From positions 1 to 38,004 of the IMG/VR virus record IMGVR_UViG_3300031451_000007: 38,004 bases of DNA; one strand, given 5' to 3'. Source of the DNA: a virus (Duplodnaviria > Caudoviricetes). The translations under genes and the position numbers were made by a program. How positions within the stretch are numbered: the first letter of the stretch is position 1; each line of letters opens with the position of its first letter. Shown one piece after another: positions 6,998-37,194 of this stretch. The notes under the pieces are model-generated. The model was not told the origin of the DNA, did no database searches, and was given only the letters and a program-made list of their open reading frames with translations.

Positions 6998-7372
6998 ATG
7001 GGCGTCTGGGATCGGGCGACCACACCGCTCTTCGCACCCGTACGCGACGACCCGAAAGCCCAAGCCAATGCGGCCTGGGTGCGGAAATGGCTCGCGGCGC
7101 TGGTGGATGGATCGAAGACGACCGAGCAGTTCGACGCGGCGATCCCGAAGCAGCGCAGCCGCATGATCGCGCAATACCTCCACATCTACGGCAAAGCCGA
7201 CGAATACTACGCGGTCTGCAACGCGCAGATCGATCGCCGGATGGAGCGCCTGCACGGCAAGCGATATTGCCGCTGGCGTGGCTGGGTCAACCTAGAGGAA
7301 TTTGACTCCTGGCGTTGGGACCGGGCGCGCGAGCGCTCGCAGTTGCCGAACAAGGACCGGAAGGTGGCGTGA
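6998..7372 (+). CDS. Hypothetical protein
   Basis: GGAGGAG RBS; 124 aa. Confidence 0.7.
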   Translation: MGVWDRATTPLFAPVRDDPKAQANAAWVRKWLAALVDGSKTTEQFDAAIPKQRSRMIAQYLHIYGKADEYYAVCNAQIDRRMERLHGKRYCRWRGWVNLEEFDSWRWDRARERSQLPNKDRKVA

Positions 7373-7436
7373 TGGCGCGACGGTGGGACCGCTGCCGGGC
7401 GGCGACGGGGCAGGAGGGGACGGAGGGGGGGCTAGG

Positions 7437-7670
7437 ATGGCGGTACTGGAGAGAGAGCCGACGCACGATGCGCTTTGTGCTGCAAACATCCTCGACCTGC
7501 GCGACTGGCTGGCCGAGCACTTCGACGATACGGCGTGCGGCCTCCTCGCGCCGCTCGGCTGGCCGTTGGTGGAAGTCACCCCGGATCGGGAACAGGCGTG
7601 CGGCGTGCTGATCCTCGTGCGCGGCGTCGGGACGATCCGCGTGACGTTGACCGTGGATAGCGTGCAGTGA
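7437..7670 (+). CDS. Hypothetical protein
   Basis: G-rich RBS; flanked by 28-bp imperfect direct repeats at 7390-7417 and 7683-7710. Confidence 0.55.
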   Translation: MAVLEREPTHDALCAANILDLRDWLAEHFDDTACGLLAPLGWPLVEVTPDREQACGVLILVRGVGTIRVTLTVDSVQ

Positions 7671-7717
7671 GCGCCGCGTGATCGCTGCCGGGCGGCGGTG
7701 GGGCAGGAGGAGGGGCG

Positions 7718-8113
7718 ATGACCACGCTTCGGGTGCTGCTGCCGATCCCGCCCAGCCTGAACCATCTCTATCGCAACGTGCCGGGGCGGGGGCGCGTGGT
7801 GACGGAGGATTATCGGATGTGGCGCGAGCTGGCGGGTTGGGCCGGTGCGCCGTGGCCGCGCCTCGCGGACGATCCCCGGAATCGGCTCGGCTGGGCGGTC
7901 GTGATCGAGGCGCGCGGGTTGGGCCACCATCGCGACCTCGATAATATCTGCAAGCCGGTACTCGATCTGATCGTGACGCACACCGGACTGCGGGACAACT
8001 ACTGCAATTCGGTCGAGCTGACGCGCGGCCCGCTCCTCTCGACCGAGACCGTGCCGTACCTGGCGGTGCGTGTGGGCATCGACGACACAGCGGCAGACAG
8101 CGAGGCGGCGTAG
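7718..8113 (+). CDS. rusA: RusA-family Holliday junction resolvase
   Basis: LPIPPSLNHLYRN N-terminus and catalytic RDLDNICKPVLD...D motif. Confidence 0.85.
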   Translation: MTTLRVLLPIPPSLNHLYRNVPGRGRVVTEDYRMWRELAGWAGAPWPRLADDPRNRLGWAVVIEARGLGHHRDLDNICKPVLDLIVTHTGLRDNYCNSVELTRGPLLSTETVPYLAVRVGIDDTAADSEAA

Positions 8114-20943: not shown

Positions 20944-21927
20944 ATGCCAGAGCGATCCTCGGCCCTCCAGCACGTCCAGATCGGGATCGAGACCAACGAA
21001 GGTGTCTCGACGGCGGCGAACAAGCAGCTGCAAGCCCTCTCGCTGACCCTGAAGCCCGAGATCGAGACCAATCGGTTCATGCCGGTCGGTACGCTGCTCG
21101 ACACCCTGGTGACACCGGGCAAGGAGTGGACCAGCGGCGGCGTGTCCGGCATCGCCACCTACGACGAGATCCTCTACGCCCTCGCCAGCGTGCTCGTGAC
21201 CCCCGCCGCGCCGGTCACGAGCGGCACCACCGGCAAACTCTGGACCTTCGAGCCGAGCGCGGTGTCCGAGGATACCGTCACCACGTACACGGTCGAGCAG
21301 GGCTCGGCGATCCGCGCGCAGAAGGCGACCGGCTGCGTGCTGACCGACTTCTCGATCAAGTGGGACCGCAGCGTGATCGAGATCGGCGGCGCGTTGCTGG
21401 GACAGCTCTTCAGCGACGGGATCACCATGACGGCGACCCCGACCAGCGTGCCGCTCGTGCCGATCCTCCCGAAGGACATCTCGGTCTACGACGACGCCAC
21501 GGCAGCGGCGCTGGGCACCACCAAGCCGCTCCGGGTGCTCTCCGGGGAGTTCGGCATCGGGGGACGCTTCAATCCGCTCTGGGTGCTCAACCAGGCCAAC
21601 CCCTCCTATGCCGGGCGCACCCTGGCGGCCCCGGACGTGACGCTGAAACTGCTGGTCGAGGCGGACGCAAGTGGCATGGCCTACCTGGCGGCGGTACGCG
21701 CGGGCACGACCCGCTTCCTCCGCTTCGAGGCGCTCGGCGGTGTCATCGGCGCGGGACCGGCCACGTACAAGTACACGCACGACATGGCGATGAAGGTCGA
21801 GAGCATCGACTCGCTGGACGACAGCGACGGGGTGTACGCCCTGTCCGTCAGCCTGCGCGGTGTCTATGACGCGACCTGGGCCAAGTGGTTATCCATAAAA
21901 ATTGTGAACTCGACCACGGCGCTCTGA
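20944..21927 (+). CDS. Major tail (tube) protein
   Basis: 327 aa, beta-rich; QIGIET-x2-G and TYTVEQG; lies between the terminator and chaperone genes. Confidence 0.85.
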   Translation: MPERSSALQHVQIGIETNEGVSTAANKQLQALSLTLKPEIETNRFMPVGTLLDTLVTPGKEWTSGGVSGIATYDEILYALASVLVTPAAPVTSGTTGKLWTFEPSAVSEDTVTTYTVEQGSAIRAQKATGCVLTDFSIKWDRSVIEIGGALLGQLFSDGITMTATPTSVPLVPILPKDISVYDDATAAALGTTKPLRVLSGEFGIGGRFNPLWVLNQANPSYAGRTLAAPDVTLKLLVEADASGMAYLAAVRAGTTRFLRFEALGGVIGAGPATYKYTHDMAMKVESIDSLDDSDGVYALSVSLRGVYDATWAKWLSIKIVNSTTAL

Positions 21928-22110
21928 TAGCGACGCACACGGGCGGGCGGCACGGCGCTGCCCGCCGCACATCTCTGGCGGAGCACAACGATGGTCACGA
22001 GCGGGTTTGATGACAAGGCGGCAGCGGCGGTCTTGTCGCTCTTCCGCACGTCGGGGCCAGCGTTCGACGAACGACGAGCGGCATTGGTAGCGCGAGGGAG
22101 AGGGACGGAC

Positions 22111-22446
22111 ATGGCGGAACTGAACGACATCATTGGCATGCGCGTGCCGGTCACATTCGACTGGAACGGCACCGAGATCGCGATCGCCTATCGCCCGTAC
22201 TCGGAGCGGATCGAGCGTGAGATCAAGGGCGACGCCGACTGGGCACAAGACAGCATGAAGGCGCTCGTCGTTCGCGTGGCGCTCGACTGGAACATCACTT
22301 CCAACAAAAAGCCGGTGCCGATCGATCTCGACACGCTGGAACAACTACCGATCGAGTTGCAGATGAGCCTCTTCTACGCGGTTTTGAACGATGTCCGAAA
22401 CCCTTCGCTGCCCATCGTGACCAAAAGCAACTCCGCCGCTATCTAG
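22111..22446 (+). CDS. Tail assembly chaperone (gpG-like)
   Basis: Follows the tube gene; W-x-I...PVPI-x3-L-x2-LP...D-x2-NP; contains the slippery site. Confidence 0.8.
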   Translation: MAELNDIIGMRVPVTFDWNGTEIAIAYRPYSERIEREIKGDADWAQDSMKALVVRVALDWNITSNKKPVPIDLDTLEQLPIELQMSLFYAVLNDVRNPSLPIVTKSNSAAI

Positions 22447-22634
22447 CGACGGACGGCCAGATGGGCGCGGAGCCAGAGTCATACGGCTATATCAGAGCCG
22501 CGAAATACATGGGCGTCGCGCCGTGGGAATTGCTGGATCGCGATGACGGGCGGTACTGGTCCTCGCAGGCGATCGCCATCCAGAACGCGGAGAATCTGGC
22601 GCAGCAAGACCTGAACAAGCATCACGGGCGGTAG
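22398..22634 (+). CDS. -1 frameshift extension of the chaperone (gpGT-like, 22111-22634)
   Basis: Heptamer A-AAC-CCT (22398-22404, X XXY YYZ in frame); the -1 frame is open to TAG at 22632-22634 (PFAAHRDQKQLRRYLATDG...AAKYMGVAPWELL...). Confidence 0.8.
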   Translation, partial: KPFAAHRDQKQLRRYLATDGQMGAEPESYGYIRAAKYMGVAPWELLDRDDGRYWSSQAIAIQNAENLAQQDLNKHHGR

Positions 22635-22645
22635 GAGGTGCCACA

Positions 22646-22825
22646 ATGCGGACCATGATCTGCCCGCGCTGTGGGCAGCCGATACCGCCCGAGGCGGAGC
22701 GCAAGCCGTTGGCCCATCCGGAGGGCTGCCATCCGGTCGTCAAGGTGGCGCACCGCAAGGCCGATGGGAAGTGGTGCGCGGTGGTCATCGCGCCGGTCGA
22801 GGACGAAGGGGGGCGGGCTAACTAG
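22646..22825 (+). CDS. Small zinc-binding hypothetical protein (59 aa, not in the ORF track)
   Basis: AGGAGG RBS; MRTMICPRCGQP...H...C. Confidence 0.55.
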   Translation: MRTMICPRCGQPIPPEAERKPLAHPEGCHPVVKVAHRKADGKWCAVVIAPVEDEGGRAN

Positions 22826-22834
22826 CTCGTCCCT

Positions 22835-23254
22835 CTACTTCTTCTTTTGCGACGGTTTCCTGTTTGCCAATCGAAGCCGCTGTTGCTCCAAGACACGCGC
22901 TAAAGTCGGGCTATTCTTCGATTCAATCGCTTTTTGAAATGCGGACGCGCGCTTGCACATGTCTTCGTCAACACCTCTGTAGACAGCGTAGAGTATGTCG
23001 AGTGATTTTGTGGCTAATGCTTCCGTCGTGATAAGGATTGGCTCACCATCGTCGTCAAGTAGATCCCATGAATCGACGTATTCCACCACCCAATCGATTA
23101 CTCGTTTCGGTTCTTCTAGTTCATTTTGCCTTTCAGGCAAGCGTATATAATAGGTAACATTTGTTATGCCACCGGGGTAGGCAATCGGTATGGTGATTGC
23201 CTCCCCTTGCAAGCGCTCTCGTAAGATGTGGTAGGCAGCATCTTCAATGCTCAT
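22835..23254 (-). CDS. Low-GC moron resembling a tail assembly chaperone
   Basis: VVEYVDSWDLLDDDGEPILITTEALATKSLDILYAVYRGVDEDM aligns by eye with the chaperone core at 22111-22446; AAGAGG RBS; TG-T-TAGTAT extended -10 at 23322-23314. Confidence 0.65.
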   Translation of the reverse strand: MSIEDAAYHILRERLQGEAITIPIAYPGGITNVTYYIRLPERQNELEEPKRVIDWVVEYVDSWDLLDDDGEPILITTEALATKSLDILYAVYRGVDEDMCKRASAFQKAIESKNSPTLARVLEQQRLRLANRKPSQKKK

Positions 23255-23390
23255 CTTGACCTCTTAGCGTGCCACTCGCTGTATTTCCGCCGCTACCCGC
23301 TCGCTAAGACGCGATACTAACACAGGAATAGACGAGGAGCCGGGGCGGGCTAGGTAGCCCGCCCCCTCCCCTGTTTGCCTGGTGCCGCGC

Positions 23391-23651
23391 TCAGTGGACG
23401 TAGCGATCGTTCTGCGGTAGCCACACCTGCCTGACCTCGGCGAGCGGCTTGTCCTGCAAGCCGCTGATCGCGGCGTGCGTCGATGCGGCGGTGCCAGCGG
23501 CGGTCATCAACGCCTCCATCAGGTCCGTCTGCGCGAGGTTCGTGGCCGCGTCGAAATTGACGGCGGCGCGGCACGCCTCGGCGAGTAGGAAGCAATCGGC
23601 GGGGTCGAGGGTCAGTGTTACGGCATCGTGGTCGAACTTGACGATATTCAT
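23391..23651 (-). CDS. Hypothetical protein
   Basis: ATGA-coupled to 23648-24010. Confidence 0.65.
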   Translation of the reverse strand: MNIVKFDHDAVTLTLDPADCFLLAEACRAAVNFDAATNLAQTDLMEALMTAAGTAASTHAAISGLQDKPLAEVRQVWLPQNDRYVH

Positions 23652-24010
23652 GCTCGATCCCCTGGCAACGTATCGAGCAAGCCCAGGCGCACGATGTCTT
23701 TGCCCTCATCGATCCCGTTGTAATAGCCCAGATCGTAGCCTGCGAGCCAGGCATCCATGTAGGTGATCAGCAGCATATGGGCGATGCCCCGGTGCATGGG
23801 ATCGCGCTCGGGGAACCGCGCGGCGAGGGTGTCCGCGAACGCCTCGATCGCCGCGACGCTGAGGTTATACGGGTCATCCCTGATCAGTTCTTCCAGGTAG
23901 GTCCGGGTGTCCTGCGGGTGGGGGCCACGGGGATAGTCGCTGTCCATTGCACGTCTCCCGCCGTCGAGTAGCATCAATGCCGGGGCGGGGCGCTCCATCT
24001 GCAAGGCCAT
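23648..24010 (-). CDS. Hypothetical protein
   Basis: GAGGAAGG RBS; AW-x2-GYDLGYYNG-x2-EG. Confidence 0.65.
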   Translation of the reverse strand: MALQMERPAPALMLLDGGRRAMDSDYPRGPHPQDTRTYLEELIRDDPYNLSVAAIEAFADTLAARFPERDPMHRGIAHMLLITYMDAWLAGYDLGYYNGIDEGKDIVRLGLLDTLPGDRA

Positions 24011-24101
24011 GATTGGCGTTCCTTCCTCGTTGGTGTGGTGGGTAGAAAAAAGAGGGGGGTGCGCCGGGGGGACTTGGCGGTGCCCCCCGGCCCGTGCCGG
24101 T

Positions 24102-24413
24102 TCAGGCGACGAGCTTGGACAGGGGGGCGACCACGCCGAACGACCAGCTCTCGCGCTCGGAGCGGCGCTCCACGGCGGCGACGTGCTTGCACATGCCGGT
24201 GAAGCGGAAGCCGTCGCACTCGCAGCCCCAGCCGTGGCGGCTGCGCTCGATGCGATAGGTCAGGCCGGGGGTGGACTGGCTGATGCTGACGTAGGAACGG
24301 GCCACGGAGACGACCGCGACGCGCACCCCTCGGGACTTGGCGCGGGCGCGGGCCTCGATCTGGCGGGCGGGTTGCGGCTTGCTGAACTGACGGGGGGTGG
24401 CGTAGGCGCTCAT
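24102..24413 (-). CDS. SWIM zinc-finger protein
   Basis: Y-x3-SQS-x-PG-x2-Y-x-I...CECDGF-x-F-x-G-x-CKH; AAAGG RBS before ATG at 24413. Confidence 0.8.
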   Translation of the reverse strand: MSAYATPRQFSKPQPARQIEARARAKSRGVRVAVVSVARSYVSISQSTPGLTYRIERSRHGWGCECDGFRFTGMCKHVAAVERRSERESWSFGVVAPLSKLVA

Positions 24414-24517
24414 GGTACAATGCCTTTCGCGTGGGGGTGAGAAACCCCTTCGTAACAGGGCGGTTGTGAGTGAGGTTCCGGCAAGTTCACCACTCACAGC
24501 CGCTTTTCTCTGTCTTT

Positions 24518-24580
24518 AGTATAGTATCTCAATAGTATCATATCAAGGGGTTTACAGATACTTGTTTCATACTATATACT
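24518..24580. promoter_or_regulatory. Back-to-back divergent promoters with repeated GATACT/ATACTA boxes
   Basis: Minus strand: TTGATA (24546-24541)-17 nt-TATACT (24523-24518). Plus strand: TTTACA (24551-24556)-18 nt-TATACT (24575-24580). Confidence 0.7.
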
Positions 24581-24604
24581 GGTACGAAGAAAGGGGGTGA
24601 TCCT

Positions 24605-24781
24605 ATGGCAGACATAGTGCGGTTCTTATTGCGTTTACCTGCGGAACTGCACGCTGAAATGAAGGATATGGCCGATCAGGACCGGCGCTCCTTACATGCC
24701 GAGATTCTGGTGTTGCTTGAAGAGGCGGTGGCGGTGCGCCGCGATGCTGCGACAGACACAGGGTCAAAACTGGCGGCGTGA
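24605..24781 (+). CDS. Arc-family ribbon-helix-helix repressor (58 aa, not in the ORF track)
   Basis: MADIVRFLLRLPAELHAEMKDMADQDRRSLHAEILVLLEEAV...KLAA has the Arc signature. Confidence 0.88.
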   Translation: MADIVRFLLRLPAELHAEMKDMADQDRRSLHAEILVLLEEAVAVRRDAATDTGSKLAA

Positions 24782-24876
24782 AGAGTAAACCAGCACGCCG
24801 CCAGTCGCAGAAGTAGTCGCCACGCGGGAGGGCTCTAATCTACCCGTGTGACGGCGTGAGTGTAGCAGAGGTAGGC

Positions 24877-25713
24877 ATGAGCGTAGAGGACGAATCGGCC
24901 ATCAGTTCGGTCGAGGCCGCTGCATTGGCCGATCAGGAAGCGATCATCACGCAGGGACTCAAAACATTCTACGCGGTCGGTACGGCGCTGCTGACCATCC
25001 GTGATCAGCGACTGTACCGGGAAGATCACAGCACATTCGAGGATTACTGCCAAGAACGCTGGGGCATGACACGCCGACATGCCAACCGTCTTATCGAAGC
25101 GTCCGAAGTGATCGATAACTTGGGACCAATTGGTCCCATTTTGCCAGCAACGGAAAGCCAAGCCCGTCCACTCACCCAACTTCCCGCCGAGCAGCAAGGA
25201 CCGGCGTGGCAAGAAGCAGTCGAGACGGCCCCGAACAATAAGCCCACGGCGGCACACGTGGTGGCCACGGTGCGGAACATCCAAGCGCCGCAAGCATCCA
25301 CGTCCCAGGAAAACCCTGGGGCAACGTTGCCCCAGGGTTTAGACGAAACGGATAGCTCTCGTCCAACTTTGGACACAACCTATTTCCCCACGGAACCAAC
25401 GATCAGTACGCTCGATCCGCGCGCCATCCAGCAATGGAAGCCAACCATCCAGCCATCTGACCCGGTGATGCAGGCGATCGTCACCAGCGGGCGCGACGAA
25501 TATCTGGCGCAGGATTTCAATAATCTCGTCGCCGTGCTGTTGCGAACTCCCGACATCGCGCGCCGCATGATGCAGGCGTCGTCTACCGTCGAGATGGCGC
25601 GTATCCTCACGCGCGATGAAGTGGTGGGGATGCGACGGGCCGTGCCGGTGCTCGAATACGCCTTGGGTATCTATGCCGATTTCGAGCGGCAGAGCCTGCG
25701 GGTGGTCCGATGA
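24877..25713 (+). CDS. Phage DNA-binding-type protein (DUF3102-like/HTH N-terminal domain)
   Basis: F-x2-VG-x-AL-x2-IRD-x-RLYR-x2-H-x-TFEDYC-x-ERWG-x2-R-x2-A-x-RLI...LP-x2-ESQARPL. Confidence 0.7.
   Translation: MSVEDESAISSVEAAALADQEAIITQGLKTFYAVGTALLTIRDQRLYREDHSTFEDYCQERWGMTRRHANRLIEASEVIDNLGPIGPILPATESQARPLTQLPAEQQGPAWQEAVETAPNNKPTAAHVVATVRNIQAPQASTSQENPGATLPQGLDETDSSRPTLDTTYFPTEPTISTLDPRAIQQWKPTIQPSDPVMQAIVTSGRDEYLAQDFNNLVAVLLRTPDIARRMMQASSTVEMARILTRDEVVGMRRAVPVLEYALGIYADFERQSLRVVR
25121..25374. repeat. Three intragenic palindromes
   Basis: TGGGACCAATTGGTCCCA (25121-25138, perfect 18 bp), AAACCCTGGGGCAACGTTGCCCCAGGGTTT (25311-25340, perfect 30 bp) and GTCCAA-CT-TTGGAC (25361-25374). Confidence 0.92.
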
Positions 25714-26228
25714 CACTGGACACGTTCCTCGGTCCCATCATGACCGAGATATTCGACGACGATCCCTCGATCGGCAACAACGATGCGGTTGCCCGCGTAC
25801 TGGCGTTCGTCAAGGTGCAGCCGAACGCCGCGTATTGCGACCAGCTCGCTATCTTCGATGGCTACCTCGTTATCTGGCGTCGGCATGTACGAAAACAGAA
25901 TGCGCGCAACCGGAAGCGGTTGAAAGCCCTCGCCTTCGCGCCGACACAGAAGAAAATCGTCAAGGACAATCCGTGGTTGCAGTTGCAGATACCATCGTCG
26001 GACGGCCAGAGCAAGATGACGATGGGGAAATCGCGCGCCGTAGACTTGCGACAATCCGCCGCGCTGATGATCGGGCAGGCGCGTGGCATGTATGCCACGA
26101 TCCGGCAATTCATCACCGCCGCAGAACTGCTTGAAATCGCCGGGGAGAAAGTTGGCAATCCCGATCTGATGCTCGAAGAAGGTGTCGAAATGGGGTTGAT
26201 CGACGTGAACCGCTTGGCAGCGGCGTAA
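25710..26228 (+). CDS. Hypothetical protein
   Basis: ATGA-coupled; 172 aa; ends in RLAAA. Confidence 0.75.
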   Translation: MTLDTFLGPIMTEIFDDDPSIGNNDAVARVLAFVKVQPNAAYCDQLAIFDGYLVIWRRHVRKQNARNRKRLKALAFAPTQKKIVKDNPWLQLQIPSSDGQSKMTMGKSRAVDLRQSAALMIGQARGMYATIRQFITAAELLEIAGEKVGNPDLMLEEGVEMGLIDVNRLAAA

Positions 26229-26244
26229 TTCTTAGGAGGCTGAT

Positions 26245-26604
26245 ATGGTGCTCACGCAAGAACAGAAAGACAATCTCTTCGCCGCCCTGGACGCCGCAGA
26301 GGGTGAGGATATGCAAGCGACCCTGATTCGTGTAGCGGGCAATCTTCGCGTGACCGATGTGGCACCCGCGTTGCGCGAATACTCGCAGATGCTTGCCCTA
26401 CGTCAGCGCACAACGGGGCTCGTGATCCGCGCGATGGATGCGATCAGGGCGGAAGGCCGACGCGCGGGTGTCGCGAATCCCGGCGAACTGATGGCGCTGC
26501 GCGGGGTCAGGACTGTCCCCGAACTCCTCGCGTCCCTTGGCTTCACCGGCGACCTCGATGCTCTGGCGAACGAGATGGAACGGGCGGTGCAACGCGCCGC
26601 GTAG
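26245..26604 (+). CDS. Hypothetical protein
   Basis: AGGAGG RBS; ends in QRAA. Confidence 0.75.
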   Translation: MVLTQEQKDNLFAALDAAEGEDMQATLIRVAGNLRVTDVAPALREYSQMLALRQRTTGLVIRAMDAIRAEGRRAGVANPGELMALRGVRTVPELLASLGFTGDLDALANEMERAVQRAA

Positions 26605-26612
26605 TCTACCCC

Positions 26613-26641
26613 TTGCCGTCCGGGGCGTCCCGCCCGATACT
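26613..26641 (+). promoter_or_regulatory. Putative hicAB promoter
   Basis: TTGCCG-17 nt-GATACT with a short GGGCG/CGCCC dyad in the spacer. Confidence 0.4.
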
Positions 26642-26682
26642 TGGTCAGCACGAGGGCGACACGACGCGACGATGGAGGGGCG

Positions 26683-26877
26683 GTGGCGACGGTAAAGGTC
26701 GGCGAGGCGCTCCGACGGTTGGGCGTCGATGGCTGGTTCCTCGTCCGCACCGCCGGGAGCCACCGCATCTTCCGCCATCCGACCAAGCCGGGGACCGTGA
26801 CGGTGCCCGGCAAGCCCGGCGAGCAACTCACGGAGGGGACATGGAACAGCATCCAGAAGCAGGCGGGCTGGCGGTAG
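26683..26877 (+). CDS. hicA: HicA-family toxin (mRNA interferase)
   Basis: L-x2-DGW-x-LVR-x2-GSH-x2-FRHPTKPG-x-VTVP...GT-x-NSI-x-KQAG. Confidence 0.92.
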   Translation: MATVKVGEALRRLGVDGWFLVRTAGSHRIFRHPTKPGTVTVPGKPGEQLTEGTWNSIQKQAGWR

Positions 26878-27389
26878 CCACCCGGCGCACCTACGCCATC
26901 GTCATCGAGTGGGCCGAGACGAACTATGCGGCGTATATCCCCGATGTCCCCGGCTGCGTGACCACCGGCGCGACGGTCGAGGAGACGATCGCCAACATGC
27001 GCGAGGCGCTCCAGGCGCACCTCGAAGTGACGCAGGAGTACGGCGAACCGCTCCCCGAGCCGCGTGCCCGCGTGGCGACCGTCGATGTGGCGATCGAATC
27101 TGGCGGGCCGACACACGCCGCGCCCACGGGAGGGACGATGCAGGCCCAACAGGACGACGACGCGGCGTTCAACGCGGCGGGCGAGCCGATCTTCCGCCTC
27201 GATGACGGCACCTGGGTACTCGCCACGCATCTCGCCTACGAATTCACGAACGGGCCGGTGCCGGACGGGATGCACGTCGTGCAATCGTGCGGCAACCAGG
27301 CGTGTATGAACCCCGACCACTTCCGCTTGCAGAAGAACTCCCCGCGCTGGGAGCGGCAACACACCAGTTGGCATCTCCATCCGGCGTAG
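26841..27389 (+). CDS. hicB: HicB-family antitoxin, in frame with a degenerate HNH domain
   Basis: YAIVIE...NYAAYIPDVPGCVTTG-x-TVEE-x3-NMREAL-x2-HL...GEPLPEP, reading through to LAYEFTNGPVPDGMHVVQSCGNQACMNPDHF. Start uncertain. Confidence 0.85.
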   Translation: MEQHPEAGGLAVATRRTYAIVIEWAETNYAAYIPDVPGCVTTGATVEETIANMREALQAHLEVTQEYGEPLPEPRARVATVDVAIESGGPTHAAPTGGTMQAQQDDDAAFNAAGEPIFRLDDGTWVLATHLAYEFTNGPVPDGMHVVQSCGNQACMNPDHFRLQKNSPRWERQHTSWHLHPA

Positions 27390-27405
27390 CGCGCGGTAAG
27401 CACCA

Positions 27406-27445
27406 CACAGCGCCCCCGCACCGCTCTGGTGCCGGGGGCGCTGTG
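27406..27445. terminator. GC-rich hairpin between convergent genes
   Basis: CACAGCGCCCCC...GGGGGCGCTGTG. Confidence 0.65.
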
Positions 27446-28348
27446 CTATTTGGCGTCTATCGTCCAGTCGCCATCGGCGGTTACATTGAACACATAGATA
27501 CCGCGCGCGGGAATACGAATACTCTGGCTCGTGGTCGTGTTGCCGATCGCGTTTGCCGCGAGCGCCACCACCTGCCCGCGACTATCGAGCACCTCCACGA
27601 TAAAGTTGCGCGTCCCGTTATGACTCCCGGCGACGAACACCGCCCCGGCGTTGGCGGTAAAGAGCGGCGTATTCTGGTTACCGGTGCCGCTGAAAGACTG
27701 GGGGAGTGGCACGGACGATTGCTGCTCGAATGCGCCGATCGGTACGAACGCGAAGACCCACGGGCCGTTCCCAAGGGTGACATTGAGGATGTAGTCGCCG
27801 GTGGCGGGCACACGAAATGCCTTGCTGGTAGACCCGGTGCCGATTGTATTGGCGAGCAAGGCCACCGTCTTACCGGTACTATCCTGCAATTCGGCGATGA
27901 AATTGTATTGGCCGGTGAAGGAGGAGTTCACCGTCATCAGCCCGGCCAGTAGATGCACGCCGGGGATGGCCTGCTGCCCCCTGCCGTTGATCTCGACGTG
28001 GGGCGATGGTGCGGCGGGCGGCGGGACGGTCGGTGGTATCGGTGTCATCGTTGGGGGACGCGGAGTTGCCGTCGCTGTCGGTGGTTTCAGGGTAGATGTC
28101 GCGGTAGCGGTTGGTGGTGCCTTTGTCGGCGCGGCGGTGCTGGTTGCGCTCGGCGCGATTGTCGACGTGGCTGGGGGTGGCGTGTTGGTCGCGGCACTCG
28201 TGGCGGTTGGCACGCCGATCGTCGCTAACTGACTAACCTCGCCAGTGCGCGTCTGCGTAGCCGCCACATTGACGGTAGGTGTCCCCGTCGCGCCACAAGA
28301 TCCCAGGAACAGACATAGGATAGCCACCGCTAACACACGTTTCATCAT
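27446..28348 (-). CDS. Lipoprotein with Thr/Pro/Ala linker and two tandem beta-sandwich repeats
   Basis: Signal peptide MMKRVLAVAILCLFLGSC (lipobox); repeats G-x-G...NFI-x-E-x2-DS-x-G-x2-VAL-x-AN-x-IG...PA-x-G-x-Y-x2-NVT-x2-(x)-G-x-W. Confidence 0.85.
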   Translation of the reverse strand: MMKRVLAVAILCLFLGSCGATGTPTVNVAATQTRTGEVSQLATIGVPTATSAATNTPPPATSTIAPSATSTAAPTKAPPTATATSTLKPPTATATPRPPTMTPIPPTVPPPAAPSPHVEINGRGQQAIPGVHLLAGLMTVNSSFTGQYNFIAELQDSTGKTVALLANTIGTGSTSKAFRVPATGDYILNVTLGNGPWVFAFVPIGAFEQQSSVPLPQSFSGTGNQNTPLFTANAGAVFVAGSHNGTRNFIVEVLDSRGQVVALAANAIGNTTTSQSIRIPARGIYVFNVTADGDWTIDAK

Positions 28349-28366
28349 GTCTCCCTATCCCCCCAC

Positions 28367-28395
28367 TTGACAACAACCGTGCCGCACTCTACCAT
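28367..28395 (+). promoter_or_regulatory. Putative promoter for the tape measure gene, overlapping a divergent extended -10 for the lipoprotein
   Basis: TTGACA-17 nt-TACCAT; the minus strand reads TG-G-TAGAGT. Confidence 0.6.
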
Positions 28396-28420
28396 ACATC
28401 CGTGCTTTGAGCGCATCCAC

Positions 28421-28479: not shown

Positions 28480-31400
28480 ATGCCGGATGTCGCCGAACTC
28501 CGCGTAAAAATATCCCTGGACGGTGCCGAGAAGGTCGCTTCTGGATTGAAGCAGGCCGACAGCAGTGTGTCCTCCTTCGCGTCCAACGCGGGCAAGATGG
28601 GCGGCGCGCTCGGCTCGGTCGCCACACAGTTCGCCGCGTTCGGGGTGGTGGCGGGCGGTGCGGTCGTGGCCGGACTCGGCGCGGCGGTATCGAAGGCCAG
28701 CGATTTCGAGGCGGGCATGTCCCGCGTCAAGGCGGCGAGTAGCGCCAGCGCGTCGGAGATGGCGGCGCTCGGGTCGGCGGCGATCGCGCTCGGCGCGGAC
28801 ACCCAACTCGCGGGCATCGGCGCGACCGACGCAGCGAGCGCGATGGAAGAGTTGGCGAAGGGGGGCGTCTCCGTTTCCGATCAACTCGGTGGGGCGACGA
28901 AGGGCGCATTGCTCCTGGCCTCATCGGGGAGCATCGCCGTCGCCGACGCGGCTGGTATCGCCACCAAGGCCATGAATATCTTCGGCCTCGCCGGGACCGA
29001 TGTGGCGCACGTCGCCGACCTGATGAGCGCCGGGGCCAACAAGAGCGCGACCGATGTGGGCCAACTCGGCGCGGCGTTCAACCAGTCGGCGGCGGTCGCG
29101 AAGAATGCGGGCCTCGACATCGAGACGCTGACCGGGACGCTCGCCTTCTTCGCGCAGCGCGGCATGGAAGGGTCCGACGCCGGGACCAGCCTCAAGACCG
29201 CCCTGCTCGCCCTGCAAGCGCCCACGGATGTCGCCGCCAAGACGATGAGCGACCTCGGCATCAACGTGCGCGACGCCAACGGCAAGATGCTCCCGATGGC
29301 GGACATCGCGGACGTGCTGAAAGATCGCCTCTCCGGTTTATCGGACGCTCAGAGGGATAGCGCGCTCAAGCAAATATTTGGGAACGACGCGATCCGCGTG
29401 GGCATCGGCCTCTACGAAGGGGGCGGTTCGGCGATCCGCGACTGGACCGCCAAAGTCAACGACGCGGGCAACGCCGCGCGCACCGGCGCGACGATCAACG
29501 ACAACCTGAAAGGCAGCCTGAGCCAGCTCGGCGCGGTGCTCGAAACGGGCGCGATCCAGTTCGGCGGCAAGCTGACGCCGGTGATCCGCACCGCGACGGA
29601 TGAGGTCGCCAAGTTTGTGCAGGGGGTGATGGACTCCCCCAGGGCGCAGGCGGCGTTCGACAGTTTCGCCACGTCGGCCGGCACGGCGATCACGGCCTTC
29701 TTCACGAAGGTCAAGGACCCGGCGTTCCAGGATGCGGCGCGCCAGTGGGCGACCGCCGCGCTCGATGTCGGCAAGGCGGTCGTCTCGCTGGGTCAGAATA
29801 TCGGCTCCACGCTCGGTCCGCCGCTGCGCGAGGCCGTGACATGGTTCAACGGCCTCGATCAGGCGGGCAAGGAACAGGTCATCTCCTTCGGCCTGGTGGC
29901 GGCTTCGGCGGTCAAGTTCCGCGACGAACTCGGCACCGTCAAGAGCGTGGTCGAGGATGTCATCAAATCCTTCGCCGCGAAGGAGGCGGCGAAGAAGGGC
30001 CTGACCGCCGCGAATAACACGCTGGCGGGAAGTGCTGCGAATACCGCCAAATCGTTCGGGGGGGTTGCTGCCGCCGCCGTACCCGCCGCGCTGGCGATCG
30101 CCGATGTGGCAGTTGTGAGCGGCGTCGCGGTGGGGGCATCGGTCGCGATGATCTCCGCCGCCGATGGCGTACAAAAGAAGTTCGGCGAGCAGAACGACAT
30201 CCTCGCACAGAGCGCCGCCCATTGGGATGCCGCGAGCATCGCCATCGCGCACGGCGGGACCGAGCAGAACAACGCGGTCGTCTACTTCCAGAAGTGGCTC
30301 GACGTCCACGGACAGACAATCAGCAGCCTCGCGCAAGGCGAGATGCTGTGGAACCAGTACGTCACCGCGACCAATAGCGCCGGGGTCGGGATCGCGGGGC
30401 TGACCACCGCGCAACTCGGGATGCTCGACCCGCTCAATCAGACGAACGCGCGCCTCGGCGAGGGGCGGATCGCGGGCGATAACTTCAATAACACGTTGGT
30501 CGGGATCGGCGTCGGCGCGAAGGTGATGGTCGGCGTATTCAGCGGTGCCGCCGCAGACGTTGACAATCTGAATAACCGTCTCGGCGAGGGGCGGATGGCG
30601 GGCGACAACTTCAACAACACGTTGGTCGGGGTGGGCGTCGGTGCGCACGCGATGGTCGCATCGATCACGGCGGTCGCCTCGGAGCAGCAGCAGGCCACCA
30701 AGGCGGCGCAAGACGGTCAGGTCGCGTGGCTCAACGCGCAAAACGCCCAGGAGAATTACGGGGGCGCGCTGGCGACGTTCGGCGAGCAGGCGCGACACGC
30801 CACCGACAATTTCAACGCGCTCGTGCAGCAGCAGCAGGCGGCGGGGCAGCAAGCGAGCGTCTACTCGGGGCAAGTCGGGCTGCTGGACGGCGGCATGGAT
30901 CGTCTCAACGCGCGGTATCAGCAGGGCATCCCACTCTCCGCCGCGCAGGTCGCGAGCTATCAGCAGGCGGCGGAGGCGGCGGCGTTCTACCGGATCGGGA
31001 TCGGGAGCCTCACCGAATCGCAGTTCACCAGCGCCATCGCCGCGCAGCAGCAGATCGTCACGGCCGAGGCGATGGTGCGTCAAACGGCGCTCCTGTCCGG
31101 CGCCTCGACCACGGTCGCCGATTCCCTGCAAGGGCAAGCGGGCGCGTACCTCACCCTCGTGGCGAACGTCGAGGCGACCAACTCCGCGTTGCGGGTCGCC
31201 ACCCAGGAACACAGCACGCTCGGCGGCGAATTGAACACGTTCACGGGCCGGGTCGCCGCACTCACGCAGCAGGAGAAGGATTACGCGGCGGGCAAGGCCG
31301 GGGTCACCGCGCTGACTATCGACGAACGCAATCAACTCGGTCAACTCAGCGGCATTATCCCCGGCATGACGGAGGCGTACCGGCTCCAAGCGGTGCAAGT

Positions 31401-34400
31401 CACCAACATGGAGATCGCGCATGTCCGCGCCAATGCGGCGCTCCAGGAGGCGCAGCAGGCGTTCCAGGGGCAGAATACCGCGATGGTGTCCAGCGGCACG
31501 GCCCTGGCCGACGCCGCGCTGAAGGCGGGCACGCTGACGCAGGCGCAGCACGATCTCGCGGTCGCGTCGATCGCCAGCGCCAGCAACGCGTTCGATCTGA
31601 CCGCCGCGATCAACAGCATCCCCGGCCAGCACGTCACACAATTCGTGGTGGACGCCGCAGGGGCGATCGAACTCGTCAGCCAGTTCGGCACCCACTTGTT
31701 CGACGTGCCGAAGGAATATGCCACCAAGCTTCAAAATAATAGTACCGACCTGATCCCATTGATCGACCAATACGGACAGGCGTTCCTGCACGTCCCCGCC
31801 GACTGGGTGACGAATGTCAACAACAACGCGGGCGAGCAGACGCCGGTCGTGGATGGCTACGGGCGAATCGTCGCGCAAATCCCGACGGAGTGGGCGACCA
31901 CCTTCCTGCACAACGCGGGCGAGGTGATCCCGGTCGTTGACAACTACGGGAATGTCATCAAGACGGTCGAGCGCAGCAAGGTCACGGAGTTTATCGCCAA
32001 CACGGCAGGCGCGCAGTCGGCGGTCAACGAATTCGGCCAGACGGTGATCAACATACCACCAACCGCGACCACCACCGTCAGCGCGCCGGGCGCGGCCACG
32101 GCGGCCACGGATATCGGGGCAGTCGCCACGGCGGCCACGACAGTGCCATCAACCGCCACCACCACCGTCAGCGCGCCCGGCGCGCTCGGTTCGGCGCAGG
32201 CGATCGGTGCACATGCCGCCGCCGCGCTCGCGGTGCCCCAAGCGGCCACCACGAATGTGACCGCACCGGGCGCGCTGGGGTCGGCGGTGTCGATCGGTGC
32301 CGTCACCGCCGCCGCGCTCGCGGTTCCCAGTGCCACCACCACCACGTCAGCGACGGTCAACACCGCCCAGTCGGCGGGACAGATCGCGGGCGTCTCCGCC
32401 GCCGTCGCGCTGGTCCCCAAATCCTTCACCGTCACCGCGAACGTGGACATCGGCGGGGCGCTCGCCAATATCGCCACCCTGGCGGCGAACATGCCGCACT
32501 CCCCGGCGAAGGAAGGGCCGTTCAAGACGCTGCCGAACTGGCAGTGGGTGTTCAGCAACTTCGCCGACGGGGTCAGCGGCGCGCTTGCCGAGGTGAGCCG
32601 ACTCGGCGGCGGGATCAGCGACACGGTGGCGGCGGGGGCGAAGCGCACCGGCGAGATCATGGGTTCGCTCGCCACCACGGTCAAGAGCGGCATGGATGCG
32701 CTCACCGGACTCGCCGCGTTCAACCCCGCGACGATGGCCCCCACGGACGCGCAGCGGGGCGGCTTCCTGGCCGCGCTCGCGCCGCTGCTCGCGGACCTCA
32801 ACGCCGCGACCACGGCCTATAGCGAGGAATCGGCCAAGGCCGCGACCCGCTGGGCCGACACGAGCGGCAAGCTGCTCGGCGTGGTCAAGGCCGGCCTCGA
32901 CGCGCTCGCGGGCCTCGTGACGTTCGTCGCCCCGGCCCAGGCCAACATCGCCGCGTTCAAGTTCGCCACGGAAAGCCTCGTCACCAGTTTGGGCGACAGC
33001 GCGGCGGTCATGGATGCGGACTTCGTGGCGAATGCCGCCGTATGGGCCGAAGGGGCTGGGAAGAGCCTCACCATCCTGAAGACCGGCGCGGACGGGTTGC
33101 GCGCGCTGCTCAACTTCGTGGCCCCGACACAGGCCAACATTGCCGCGTTCAAGTTCGCGACCGAGTCCCTGGTGCGCTCGCTCGGCGATAGCGCCGTGGT
33201 GATGGACAGCACATTCGCGGCCAATGCGGGCGTCTGGGCGACCGGGGCGGGCAAAGCGCTCGGGATCCTCAAATCGGGCGTGGACGGTTTCGCGGCGCTC
33301 GCCACGCTGGTGGTGCCGAGTCAGGCGGCGATCGGGGCGTTCAAATTCGCCACCGAGTTCGTCGTGCAGAGCATCGCCGACACGGCGGCGGCGATGGACG
33401 CCAGGGCGGTCGCGGCGGCGGCGGTATGGAGCGACGGGGCGGGGAAGGTGCTCGGCCTGATCAAATCGGGCGTGGACGGGCTGACCGCCCTGGCGGCGTT
33501 CGTCGCGCCCGCCCCCGCCGCGATCGACGCCTTCGCCGTGGCGGTCGGGCAGATCGTCGCCCGTTTCGCGGTCGCGGCGCAGGCGATCGGCACCGAGGGG
33601 GTCGCGGCGGCGGGCGCGTTCGGCACCAGCGCCAAACTGGCGGTCGATACGATCAAGACCGGCCTCGACGCCTTCAAGTCGTTCAAAGACATGGTGATTC
33701 CTTCCTCCGGCGCGATCGACGAATTGGTGGCGGGCGTGACCTATGTCGTGCAACGGTTCGCGGACATGGCCGATCAGATGGGCAAGGGCGCGCTCGGCAA
33801 GGCGCAGGACTTCGCCACGGCGGTCGGTGCGAGCGCCAAATCCGTGCAGACGGCGATCGGCACGTTCAAGAGCCTCACCGAAGCCCCGTTCAAGGGGGCC
33901 ATGACCGCGATCATGACGGAATTCACGGGCGATTTCGACGGCGCGCTGACCCTGATGAAGGAGGCGACCGCCGCCGCCGGGGAGTACGAGGCCCAGGCGC
34001 ATCTGTACGAGCAGGCGATGAAGAACGCCGCGAGCTGGATCGCGGCGGGGAACGCGGCGCTGGCGACGGCGGCGCTGCCGGGCAGCGGCATGGGCGCGGC
34101 GATGGCCGACGCGGGCGCGCATCTCGGCGACAGCCTCGCGAGCGGGATGCGCGGCGCCCTGGAGATCCACTCGCCCTCGCAGGTGATGGTCACGGTCGGC
34201 CAGCAGGTGGTCGCAGGGCTCGTCGCCGGCATGAGTTCCAGCGCGCAGGACGCGGCGAAAAAGGCCGCCGACGTGGCGAAAGGGATCGCCGACGCCGTGA
34301 CGGCCACCTTGGGCGCGATGAAGGCGCTCGGCGGGCTGAGCATGGCGTCCCTCCCCTCGGGCGGGCAGGTGGGCGCGTTCGTCGCCTTCACCGGCCAGCT

Positions 34401-37194
34401 CGTCATCGCACTTTCCGGCGCGGCTACCAGCCTCACGACTACCGCGCGGGATGCCGCGAGCAAGTACGCCGAGGCGGCGAGCAAGGTCGTCTCCTTGGTT
34501 GGCAGTGGCGTGGACGCCTTCGGCAAGCTCGCCAACGTCGCACTCCCCGCCGTGACCGCGATCTACGGGTTAGACAGGCTGATCCAGGCGGCGGTGAACG
34601 ATTTCGCCGTGATCGCCGAGGCGGTCGGTACGGAGATGCTCGGGCTGGCGACCGATTTCGCGAGCGGGGCGGGTGCGGTGGCCGAGACGATCGGCAAGGC
34701 GGCGGACGGGTTCGCCAAGCTCGGCTCGTTCGCCTACACCGACGGGGCGATGGGCGGGATCTTCGCCCTCGGGAAGGCGGTCAGGCAGGCGGTCCAGGAC
34801 TTCGCGGCGATCGCCGAGCAGGTCGGCACCCCCCTCCTGGGCCTCGCCTCCTCGTTCGCCGACGGTGCGGGCAAGGTTGTCGATGTGGTCGGCAAGGGTG
34901 CGGCGGGCTTCGCCAAGCTGGCCGACTTCGCCTATACCGACGCGATCACGGCGGGGATATTCGCGTTCGGCAAGGCGGTGCGCCAGGTGGTGCTCGACTT
35001 CGGGACCATCGCGCAGCAGGTCGGCCCGGCGCTGACCGGGCAGGCGGCGATCTTCGCCGATGGGGCCGGGAAGGTCGTCGCGATCATCTCCAATGCGGTG
35101 GACGGCTTCGCCAAGCTCGCCACCTACAAGGGCATCGCCAATACGCTGATCGGCCCGTTCGTGGAGACGGTGCGGACCCTCGTCGCGGCGATCGGGCAGG
35201 CGGCGACACAGTTCACCACCGAGGGGCTGACGCAGGCGGGGCAGTTCGCGGACGCGGCGAGCAAGGCGATCGGCCTCCTCTCCGGGATCGACGGCTTCGG
35301 CAAGCTGGCGGCGTTCCAGGTTCCCGCCGCCGCGAGCATCGCCGCCTTCGCCGGCACGGTCGCGACGATGGTGCGGCAGATCGGCGCGATCGCGACCGGC
35401 TTCACCACGGACGGCTTGGCGGCGGCGAGCCTCTTCGCGGACACGGCGGGAAAGGTGCTCGGCATCGTCGGCAACGGCGTGGACGGCTTCGCCAAGCTCG
35501 CCGACTTCAAGGCCCCGCTCACCGCCACGATGGGCGCGTTCATCTCTAGCCTCTTCACCTTCACGGCCACGTTCGCGAATTGGATGCCGACCTTCGCGAC
35601 GGAGCAACTCGCGGCGGCGTCGCTCTTCGCCGACACGGCGGGGAAGGTCGTCGGGCTGATCTCGTCCGGCGTGGACGGCTTCGCCAAGCTCGCGACCCTC
35701 GTCACCCCGTCCGGCGCCGCGATCGGGGAATTCATCCGTGTCGCGACCGACATGACAAGCCGCTTCGTCGCCGCCGTGCCGACCTTCGCCGAAGGGCAGC
35801 TGGTGGCGGCCTCGCTCTTTGCGGATACGACAAGCAAGGTGGTCGGGCTGATCGGGGCGGGCGTCGATGGCTTCGCCAAGCTCGCCACCTTCAATGCTCC
35901 GCTCAACGCCGTCATGGGCGCGTTCATCGACAGCGTTTTCACCTTCACCGCGACCTTTGCCAATTGGGTGCCACGCCTCGCCTCGGAGCAACTGGCGGCG
36001 GCGGGCGCATTCGCCGACGTGGCATCCAAGACGGTCGGGCTGATCGGCTCCGGTGTGGATGGCTTCGCCAAGCTGGCATTGTTCGCCGTCCCGTCGAGTG
36101 GCGCGATGGGCGCGTTCATCGACGGTATCTTCCTCTTCACGGCGACGTTCGCGCGCTGGGTACCGACCTTCGCCGACGGGCAATTGGCGGCGGCGTCGCT
36201 CTTCGCGGATACGGCGGGCAAGGTGATCGGGCTGGTCGGGGCGGGCGTCGATGGCTTTGGCAAGCTCGCCGATTTCCGGGCACCGCTCGATGGCACGATG
36301 GGCGGTTTCCTCGCCACGCTGATCGACTTCACCGCGCGCTTCGTCGCCGCCGTGCCGCGCTTCGCCTCGGAGCAACTCGCGGCGGCATCGGCCTTCGCCG
36401 ACGTGGCGAGCAAGGCGGTGGGCCTGATCGGGACCGGGGTCGCGGGCTTCGCCGCGCTCGCCGACTTCCGCGCGCCGACCGCCGCCGCGCTGGACGCCTT
36501 CGCCTGGTCGGTCGGCCAACTGGTCGCGCGCATGGTGGGGATCGGCGCGTGGTTCGAGCAGAACGGCCTGGACGCGGCGGGCACCTTCGCCGACACGGCG
36601 GGCAAGGTGCTCGCCACGCTGGGGTCCGGGGTCTCCGGGCTGACGAGCCTCTTCACGTTCGTCGCGCCGGGCCTGGGCGCGCTGGACGCGTTCGCGGGCG
36701 CGGTGCGGGACATGGTGGCGCGTTTCACCTGGATCGCGGGGACGCTCTCCGGGGACGGCGTGCGAGCGGCGGCGGAGTTCGGCGCGGCGACCGGGACGAT
36801 CTTCGGGGCGTTGCAGTCCGCGACCGGATTCTTCAACAGCCTCGACGGCCTGCTGCTGCCCGACCGGGCCGGGATCGACCGGCTCCTCGCCCCGATCATC
36901 GACACGCTGGCGGCGGTGACGGATGCGGCGAACCGGATCGGCGCGGGCGGCCTGGAAGCGGCCACGGCGTTCAGCACGGCGGTCGGCGCGGTGTTCGGGG
37001 CGATCAACACGGCGCAGCAGGCGACGGGCGGCATCGCGCCGCTCGCGATCGGCGGTGGGGGCGGATCGGGCGGCGGTGGGGGCGGGGGGATGAGCGTGAC
37101 GATCCAGATCAATGCACCGGTGTATGGCGTGCAGGATTTGCAGGAAGCAGTCGTGAGCGGCGTGATCGAAGCGCGGCGACGCGGGCGACTCTAA
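28480..37194 (+). CDS. Tape measure protein (TP901-type N-terminal core), 2904 aa
   Basis: MPDVAELRVKI start; DFEAGM-x2-V...ELAKGG...GSDAGTSLK...IFGNDA...DNLKG core; Ala/Gly-rich repeats; C-terminal VTIQINAPVYG. Confidence 0.95.
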   Translation: MPDVAELRVKISLDGAEKVASGLKQADSSVSSFASNAGKMGGALGSVATQFAAFGVVAGGAVVAGLGAAVSKASDFEAGMSRVKAASSASASEMAALGSAAIALGADTQLAGIGATDAASAMEELAKGGVSVSDQLGGATKGALLLASSGSIAVADAAGIATKAMNIFGLAGTDVAHVADLMSAGANKSATDVGQLGAAFNQSAAVAKNAGLDIETLTGTLAFFAQRGMEGSDAGTSLKTALLALQAPTDVAAKTMSDLGINVRDANGKMLPMADIADVLKDRLSGLSDAQRDSALKQIFGNDAIRVGIGLYEGGGSAIRDWTAKVNDAGNAARTGATINDNLKGSLSQLGAVLETGAIQFGGKLTPVIRTATDEVAKFVQGVMDSPRAQAAFDSFATSAGTAITAFFTKVKDPAFQDAARQWATAALDVGKAVVSLGQNIGSTLGPPLREAVTWFNGLDQAGKEQVISFGLVAASAVKFRDELGTVKSVVEDVIKSFAAKEAAKKGLTAANNTLAGSAANTAKSFGGVAAAAVPAALAIADVAVVSGVAVGASVAMISAADGVQKKFGEQNDILAQSAAHWDAASIAIAHGGTEQNNAVVYFQKWLDVHGQTISSLAQGEMLWNQYVTATNSAGVGIAGLTTAQLGMLDPLNQTNARLGEGRIAGDNFNNTLVGIGVGAKVMVGVFSGAAADVDNLNNRLGEGRMAGDNFNNTLVGVGVGAHAMVASITAVASEQQQATKAAQDGQVAWLNAQNAQENYGGALATFGEQARHATDNFNALVQQQQAAGQQASVYSGQVGLLDGGMDRLNARYQQGIPLSAAQVASYQQAAEAAAFYRIGIGSLTESQFTSAIAAQQQIVTAEAMVRQTALLSGASTTVADSLQGQAGAYLTLVANVEATNSALRVATQEHSTLGGELNTFTGRVAALTQQEKDYAAGKAGVTALTIDERNQLGQLSGIIPGMTEAYRLQAVQVTNMEIAHVRANAALQEAQQAFQGQNTAMVSSGTALADAALKAGTLTQAQHDLAVASIASASNAFDLTAAINSIPGQHVTQFVVDAAGAIELVSQFGTHLFDVPKEYATKLQNNSTDLIPLIDQYGQAFLHVPADWVTNVNNNAGEQTPVVDGYGRIVAQIPTEWATTFLHNAGEVIPVVDNYGNVIKTVERSKVTEFIANTAGAQSAVNEFGQTVINIPPTATTTVSAPGAATAATDIGAVATAATTVPSTATTTVSAPGALGSAQAIGAHAAAALAVPQAATTNVTAPGALGSAVSIGAVTAAALAVPSATTTTSATVNTAQSAGQIAGVSAAVALVPKSFTVTANVDIGGALANIATLAANMPHSPAKEGPFKTLPNWQWVFSNFADGVSGALAEVSRLGGGISDTVAAGAKRTGEIMGSLATTVKSGMDALTGLAAFNPATMAPTDAQRGGFLAALAPLLADLNAATTAYSEESAKAATRWADTSGKLLGVVKAGLDALAGLVTFVAPAQANIAAFKFATESLVTSLGDSAAVMDADFVANAAVWAEGAGKSLTILKTGADGLRALLNFVAPTQANIAAFKFATESLVRSLGDSAVVMDSTFAANAGVWATGAGKALGILKSGVDGFAALATLVVPSQAAIGAFKFATEFVVQSIADTAAAMDARAVAAAAVWSDGAGKVLGLIKSGVDGLTALAAFVAPAPAAIDAFAVAVGQIVARFAVAAQAIGTEGVAAAGAFGTSAKLAVDTIKTGLDAFKSFKDMVIPSSGAIDELVAGVTYVVQRFADMADQMGKGALGKAQDFATAVGASAKSVQTAIGTFKSLTEAPFKGAMTAIMTEFTGDFDGALTLMKEATAAAGEYEAQAHLYEQAMKNAASWIAAGNAALATAALPGSGMGAAMADAGAHLGDSLASGMRGALEIHSPSQVMVTVGQQVVAGLVAGMSSSAQDAAKKAADVAKGIADAVTATLGAMKALGGLSMASLPSGGQVGAFVAFTGQLVIALSGAATSLTTTARDAASKYAEAASKVVSLVGSGVDAFGKLANVALPAVTAIYGLDRLIQAAVNDFAVIAEAVGTEMLGLATDFASGAGAVAETIGKAADGFAKLGSFAYTDGAMGGIFALGKAVRQAVQDFAAIAEQVGTPLLGLASSFADGAGKVVDVVGKGAAGFAKLADFAYTDAITAGIFAFGKAVRQVVLDFGTIAQQVGPALTGQAAIFADGAGKVVAIISNAVDGFAKLATYKGIANTLIGPFVETVRTLVAAIGQAATQFTTEGLTQAGQFADAASKAIGLLSGIDGFGKLAAFQVPAAASIAAFAGTVATMVRQIGAIATGFTTDGLAAASLFADTAGKVLGIVGNGVDGFAKLADFKAPLTATMGAFISSLFTFTATFANWMPTFATEQLAAASLFADTAGKVVGLISSGVDGFAKLATLVTPSGAAIGEFIRVATDMTSRFVAAVPTFAEGQLVAASLFADTTSKVVGLIGAGVDGFAKLATFNAPLNAVMGAFIDSVFTFTATFANWVPRLASEQLAAAGAFADVASKTVGLIGSGVDGFAKLALFAVPSSGAMGAFIDGIFLFTATFARWVPTFADGQLAAASLFADTAGKVIGLVGAGVDGFGKLADFRAPLDGTMGGFLATLIDFTARFVAAVPRFASEQLAAASAFADVASKAVGLIGTGVAGFAALADFRAPTAAALDAFAWSVGQLVARMVGIGAWFEQNGLDAAGTFADTAGKVLATLGSGVSGLTSLFTFVAPGLGALDAFAGAVRDMVARFTWIAGTLSGDGVRAAAEFGAATGTIFGALQSATGFFNSLDGLLLPDRAGIDRLLAPIIDTLAAVTDAANRIGAGGLEAATAFSTAVGAVFGAINTAQQATGGIAPLAIGGGGGSGGGGGGGMSVTIQINAPVYGVQDLQEAVVSGVIEARRRGRL
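34470..36660 (+). repeat. Tandem ~50-60-aa repeats in the tape measure protein
   Basis: Recurring AA-x2-FAD-x-AGKV-x-GLI-x2-GVDGFAKLA; coordinates approximate. Confidence 0.85.

Follow-up and report, generated by a model that had tools for sequence, protein, structure and literature searches.

An antisense, frameshift-less homologue of the tail assembly chaperone in a variable phage cassette: a candidate tail-assembly decoy

Why would a phage that already encodes a tail assembly chaperone locus carry, shortly behind it and on the opposite strand, a second gene resembling the chaperone? We addressed this question in a 38,004-nt stretch of DNA (the window), a 38 kb virus record that is 43% complete and comes from rock metagenome runs. 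An initial annotation had proposed that the antisense gene, here called gene A, is made in lysogens and poisons the tail assembly of related superinfecting phages. Judging from the sequence, we give a probability of about 0.4 to the reading that A would be a lysogen-expressed, dominant-negative tail-assembly decoy.

Gene A and the resident chaperone locus

The long-tail morphogenesis module of the window comprises terminase, portal, scaffold, capsid, neck, terminator and tail tube (20944-21927) genes, followed by the resident chaperone gene G, a set of accessory genes and the tape measure protein (TMP) gene at 28480 (Table 1). The initial call of a gpG/GT chaperone locus is sound because three lines of evidence agree: a slip site, a -1 frame that resembles the T frames at other loci, and a structure ranking in which the G model places first 3klu (Z 6.8), 3fgx (Z 6.2) (both of which we take to be chaperones) and the HK97 chaperone 2ob9 (Z 4.9).

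Table 1 Features at and around gene A (positions in the window)
Feature	Position	Strand	Remarks
Resident tail assembly chaperone G, 111 aa	22111..22446	+	Model and profile
Slippery heptamer AAACCCT with predicted T domain (GT) in the -1 frame	22398..22634	+	Open -1 frame
Zn-ribbon-like gene, 59 aa	22646..22825	+	Also present in relatives without A
Left hairpin copy, terminator-like	22807..22846	+	-24.8 kcal/mol on +, -13.1 on -
Gene A, gpG-type tail assembly chaperone homologue	22835..23254	-	Core ~residues 14-100; extension ~100-139
RBS-like AAGAGGT	23259..23265	-	4 nt 5' of gene A ATG
Extended -10-like element TGTTAGTAT	23314..23322	-	59 nt 5' of gene A ATG; candidate promoter
Right hairpin copy	23341..23367		Resembles the lone hairpin at the L003 and L051 empty site
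86-aa gene upstream of A	23391..23651	-	Homologue adjoins hairpin directly at empty sites

The antisense gene had been drawn at 22835..23330. An antisense ORF is indeed present there, and its coding part is confined to 22835-23254, an intact frame of 139 aa with an ATG start on the - strand. Its stop lies 200 nt past the GT stop at 22634, in line with the distance first given, and these 200 nt contain the Zn-ribbon-like gene of 59 codons. The low GC attributed to gene A is likewise borne out (0.479, window 0.665), and its GC3 of 0.514 lies below that of G (0.82) and of the tail tube gene (0.915). Both proposed expression signals, a ribosome-binding site (AAGAGGT) and an extended -10 (TGTTAGTAT), are found upstream of the gene, the latter being promoter-like. 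The extended -10 motif occurs 15 times in the 38 kb on both strands, and ~0.018 occurrences are expected per 90 nt; a sigma-70 scan of the region upstream of gene A found no -35/-10 pair. Among the listed runs that contain the window, none is an RNA dataset. Composition and signals support the view that gene A sits in an antisense, low-GC inserted cassette with its own promoter-like site, and its intact ORF, with an extension common to its relatives, suggests that it has been kept under selection. On the - strand, extended -10-like motifs cluster in the accessory region (28394, 24867, 24545, 24540 and 23322), and one of them lies 46 nt 5' of an antisense 300-aa gene.

Relationship of A to the tail assembly chaperones

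The initial annotation had described A as a paralogue that parallels G along its length. The peptide pairs it quoted are present, but pairwise likeness does not rise above chance. BLASTP of A against G gave E 1.3, the A-G local alignment score was reached by 164 of 2000 shuffles (G without its first 7 residues), an alignment of the G family matched A at 1.8% probability, and a G-only profile scored A at 9.7 bits where the shuffle maximum was 13.1. It is through broader profiles that family homology emerges. A profile of 59 chaperones from the fetched loci, with no A-type protein among them, scored A at 49.8 bits (maximum of 2000 shuffles, 9.9), and a profile of four context-checked in-operon chaperones, two of which were originally found using an A-type query, scored it at 25.5 bits (shuffle maximum, 10.1). 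Alignment A9 matched A at E 1.3e-9. Furthermore, a phmmer search of 1.84 billion proteins with A returned 25 rows: A itself, three A-like proteins (P0014, 49% identity overall; P0015, partial; and P0022, 37%), five short chaperone-like proteins and 16 long repeat proteins. The nine rows kept, once aligned, match the G family at 97.8% probability. The 16 repeat proteins (P0016-21, 23-25, 27-30, 32, 35 and 37) were dropped as chance helix matches; one of them, P0030, is by eye presumably Sel1-like. A also keeps the invariant Trp and the W-D-L..D..G.P core. Because homology to the G family is significant in the broad profiles, we consider A a true, distant member of the tail assembly chaperone (G-domain) family rather than a duplicate of G. 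It belongs to this family and not to the canonical G/GT system.

The A-type family is small, numbering five to six proteins. A word-index search using A matched only A itself, and neither A nor the resident G has a chaperone family match in Pfam or PHROG. Locus searches with A, P0014, P0038 and P0039 in viral contigs, and with P0038 in GTDB genomes, gave weak or ordinary in-operon matches only, and annotated phages and plasmids yielded no loci for A-type queries.

The idea that A is a local duplicate fared poorly. In core trees, the G family falls on a separate starred branch and A is placed elsewhere with P0014, a placement that argues for A being an acquired distant homologue and not a recent local duplicate; recent duplication of G was rejected on these trees. 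The nearest rows to A are P0014, P0034, P0049, P0036 and L057, with deeper forks unsettled: the two A-type groups do not join, a single A-type clade is not rejected (p-AU 0.139), and neither is a constraint of A and P0014 with G (p-AU 0.204).

As first claimed, A lacks a slippery site. The strict heptamer is found within the last 45 codons of 50 of the 59 other chaperones (A AAC CCT in G) and is absent from A, which also has no T domain (T profile, 0.7 bits). A instead ends in ~40 aa predicted to form two helices with a basic tip. The basic tail singled out at the outset is therefore real, in that A ends helical and basic, but it is not special to A, as the C-termini of several ordinary G proteins are basic runs too; what sets A apart is structure, the tails of ordinary G proteins being Ser/Gly/Pro-rich. 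The extension is common to A, P0014, P0022, P0038 and P0039. Its score between A and P0022 was reached by 0 of 5000 shuffles, P0022 having been chosen via a search with A, and that between P0014 and P0022, weak alone, by 126 of 5000. No match to the A-type extension was found in the 59 chaperones, T or TMP, and its interpretation as a T remnant or as a TMP mimic was dropped for lack of any match. P0014 and P0022/38/39 could be in-operon chaperones, which counts against the decoy reading.

Structure prediction gave a similar picture. The top viral Foldseek match of the A model (pLDDT 81.6; E 4.5e-5) is the same as that of the G model, and annotated tail chaperones occupy ranks 3, 6, 8 and 12. 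Foldseek against the PDB gave no match to the A model at E 0.001, and solved chaperone structures match A weakly (Z 3.7-4.0, whereas YbaB-like proteins reach Z 6.1), among them 2ob9, the HK97 chaperone (Z 3.9, rmsd 4.7, 86 aligned), and 5IR0, the PLE TAC (Z 4.0). The chaperone likeness that had been expected of A is thus found by profile and viral Foldseek, and its match to solved structures is weak. In the ESM Atlas, feature matches to A (0.91-0.92) are unnamed viral clusters and YdaY-like, and structure rows (TM 0.45-0.56) include chaperone clusters under the naming bar; we treat both as leads only. A and P0014 are without the conserved Tyr-Arg-Pro motif, whose Pro is found in 51 of 59 chaperones and which P0022 retains, and the helix that follows the motif is not predicted in A. 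This loss could abolish chaperone-like binding in A and so counts against the decoy reading.

The same features could be explained by a new function on an old fold, with the core as scaffold and the extension binding nucleic acid or another protein, which would make A a regulator or effector. The extension is the part special to A-type proteins, the Tyr-Arg-Pro motif is absent from A and P0014, and the best solved-structure matches of A are YbaB-like proteins (Z 6.1 and 5.2), which have a nucleoid role. These Z values, however, fall within the background reported by the tool, the G model ranks chaperone structures first, and basic tails are shared with ordinary G proteins. We regard this explanation as unlikely, if somewhat less so than the other rival explanations below.

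The cassette and its occurrence in other genomes

Gene A is a variable cassette between hairpin copies and is absent from close relatives. In the window, two hairpin copies flank it as direct repeats (chance 0.01). The left copy folds well on the + strand only; it overlaps the A stop, and its T-rich tail corresponds, on the opposite strand, to that stop and the last Lys codons. At the empty site in L003 and L051, a single hairpin lies between the small Zn gene and the homologue of the 86-aa gene, and the L003 DNA match to the window ends at 22833 and restarts at 23338. A contig from run X5 joins 21981 to 23342 by 776 letters instead of 1360, a spacer presumably too small to hold A. An assembly artefact is unlikely, since a second sample (X2 records 22802-23080 and 23199-23382) holds both junctions with no differences. 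An X3 contig agrees with the window as far as 22807, shows the changes seen in the G homologue P0004 and continues for 519 unseen bases. P0014 may sit at A's site: its one contig, of 12,869 nt, equals the X3 contig in size, the locus itself being unseen. Both neighbours of A (the Zn gene and the 86-aa gene) occur in relatives without it; the cassette contains one gene, and the record is partial. L003 lies within a record classed as provirus, and A can be described as an accessory gene in the late-operon hotspot of a temperate phage, with temperate status taken from the relative G001, classed provirus.

The initial annotation had convergent late transcription silence A during the lytic cycle. 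This idea is weakened by a + strand terminator-like hairpin that separates A from the late genes. Late transcription would probably stop short of A, pointing to insulation rather than silencing.

The interval from G to TMP is about 5.8-6.4 kb here and >3 kb in L036 and L051, with a median of 545 nt in 38 loci. The accessory hotspot (22646-28400) holds leftward SWIM-like, 120-aa and 86-aa genes, an Arc-like repressor, 285-aa and 172-aa genes, divergent promoter-like sites at 24518-24580, HicA (26641-26877), a frame matching both HicB and HNH (26613-27389) and the antisense 300-aa gene, which is lipoprotein-like. Layouts are alike in L003 and L051, where the lipoprotein position before TMP (L003:12049-13239 and L051:12810-14057, both on the - strand) is occupied by a lipoprotein-like gene whose product has a staphylococcal nuclease domain (matched by Pfam in L003 and recognised by eye in L051); the C-terminal domain of the window gene is a different one. 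Among close relatives, shuffling has affected both the tail tube and G. The window tube is 44% identical to L003:8951-9934 between flanks of ~80% DNA identity, and in L005 the tube is 96% and G 76% identical.

We surveyed the arrangement in other genomes. Of 62 viral loci retrieved through their tail tube, 53 have one co-oriented chaperone match apiece, accompanied in 51 by a T match; most of the nine without a chaperone match are cut at a contig end. None of the 53 chaperone-bearing loci has a second or antisense extra copy. When whole records were searched for 33 of the 62 loci, 31 proved to have a match and none a second gene; in one record the match fell into two adjoining pieces on the same strand. 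Across 301 genomes from the phylum of G003, 14 genomes hold 16 chaperone matches, 15 of them co-oriented with structural genes (by profile or by eye). The sixteenth, L090:9915-10316 (-) in G132, is inverted, carries a slip site and is that prophage's only G/GT. Because an ordinary G/GT can be inverted, orientation alone proves nothing and is weakened as a sign of defence. The arrangement of A, antisense, outside the tube-G-T-TMP order and downstream of a complete resident G/GT, is rare, and ordinary members are not extra antisense copies. The L090 gene lies behind the tail tube and faces a + strand hairpin, and neck-like genes there (2450-2929 and 7124-7899) are inverted too. A chaperone at L027:1492-1827 has neither a strict slip site nor a T match, is followed directly by a TMP-like frame, has no tube match within 1.5 kb and possibly belongs to a G-only tail module.

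A might also be a captured passenger, a G gene of another phage that was inserted at a hairpin prone to recombination, no longer has its frameshift and plays no selected role. Such a history would suit its rarity, the variability of the G-to-TMP interval within the clade and the occurrence of inverted structural genes. It is at odds with an intact ORF that has a ribosome-binding site and a promoter-like site, and with a structured extension kept across proteins that are 37-49% alike, and we consider it improbable.

Possible functions of A

The decoy reading can be framed against what is reported for canonical chaperones. In lambda, the 0 frame is kept ~96% of the time and the G:GT ratio must stay high (PMC3296357). 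Whereas the G domain attaches to TMP, the tube is brought in by T, and TP901-1 lacking gpT produces tailless capsids (PMC4493119). Simple poisoning of the ratio, as first proposed, is weakened by these numbers: G is already in large excess over GT, so modest extra G would hardly shift the ratio and a decoy would have to cap or occupy its target. We therefore picture a different route. A would be expressed from its own promoter in the prophage state and would bind the TMP or chaperone spiral of a rival through its kept core. Without T, it would not recruit the tail tube, leaving tailless particles, and its extension would block by capping or occupying, not by mere dilution of GT. Self-tolerance would come from the distance between A and the phage's own G, not from convergent silencing.

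Tab, Tai and Rta are described as prophage- or satellite-encoded blockers of tail assembly, and A would most likely work like Tab or Rta. Tab of JBD26 is an accessory prophage gene whose proposed action is to block tail assembly at TMP, and its authors suggest that it may keep the chaperone from binding (PMC10884400). That report does not describe Tab as a chaperone homologue, and Tab needs anti-Tab, whereas A has no tied partner. Tai/Ati (PMC11364771) resembles A as a moron of opposite orientation within a late operon. As described there, however, Tai belongs to a noncontiguous operon that also includes a counter-defence gene, whereas A is preceded by a + strand terminator-like hairpin and has none tied to it; Tai is also widespread, unlike the A-type family. 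The PLE TAC (5IR0) and Rta (PMC12987554) combine a mobile element's own distant chaperone, 20% identical to that of the helper, with tail-assembly interference. In that account the PLE TAC is paired with its own TMP for building chimeric tails and the blocking is done by a distinct protein, Rta, whereas A has no partner TMP. Prophage P-FimU (PMC12952977) parallels the decoy reading as a structural look-alike in phage-versus-phage defence; it is reported to mimic a host pilus protein and block adsorption, whereas A would mimic a phage assembly factor. To gpG/gpGT themselves (lambda, TP901-1 and HK97 2OB9), A is alike in G-domain profile and predicted fold, and it differs in being an antisense second copy with no slip site or T domain and a 40-aa helical extension.

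Two further points count against the decoy reading. A PADLOC 2023 scan gave no match for A, and in this partial record no gene of counter-defence can be linked to A, whose two neighbours also occur in relatives that lack it. More tentative than that reading itself is the claim that A would be the first anti-phage protein derived from a phage's own chaperone, a frameshift-less G plus a new helix carried as a moron, with its range set by chaperone-TMP specificity and no antidote needed; our searches of open-licence literature returned no report of a chaperone-derived moron. If A blocks tails, tail-assembly defence would gain a structural logic, chaperone mimicry, that is not seen in the cited accounts of Tab, Tai and Rta. 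Such defences could then be found as second, frameshift-less chaperone genes, and A would be a natural probe of how the G spiral grows on TMP and is handed over to the tube.

A decoy could also be aimed at the host. A would then occupy chaperone-fold sensors (Avs17, Schlafen pSlfn5) without triggering them and shield the phage's own G, which would amount to counter-defence against chaperone-sensing Avs17 and Schlafen systems. A keeps the chaperone core, varies between relatives and has its own promoter-like site, but fold-level sensors would more likely be triggered by a constitutive G-like protein, and we hold this to be as doubtful as the passenger explanation. Least probable is that A helps the phage's own tail as an extra G-only supply tuning the G:GT ratio for a long TMP. 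In favour are the high ratio reported to be required in lambda and the TMP length (2904 aa, compared with 2321 aa in A-less L003). Against it, A is only remotely related to the resident G, runs antisense and does not belong to the late transcript.

The window TMP ORF (28480-37194) has internal repeats. Towards the other end of the window, 236-814 encodes a Mom-family protein (E 2.9e-17) and 2381-3073 a Rad52/22-family annealing protein (E 2.6e-11).
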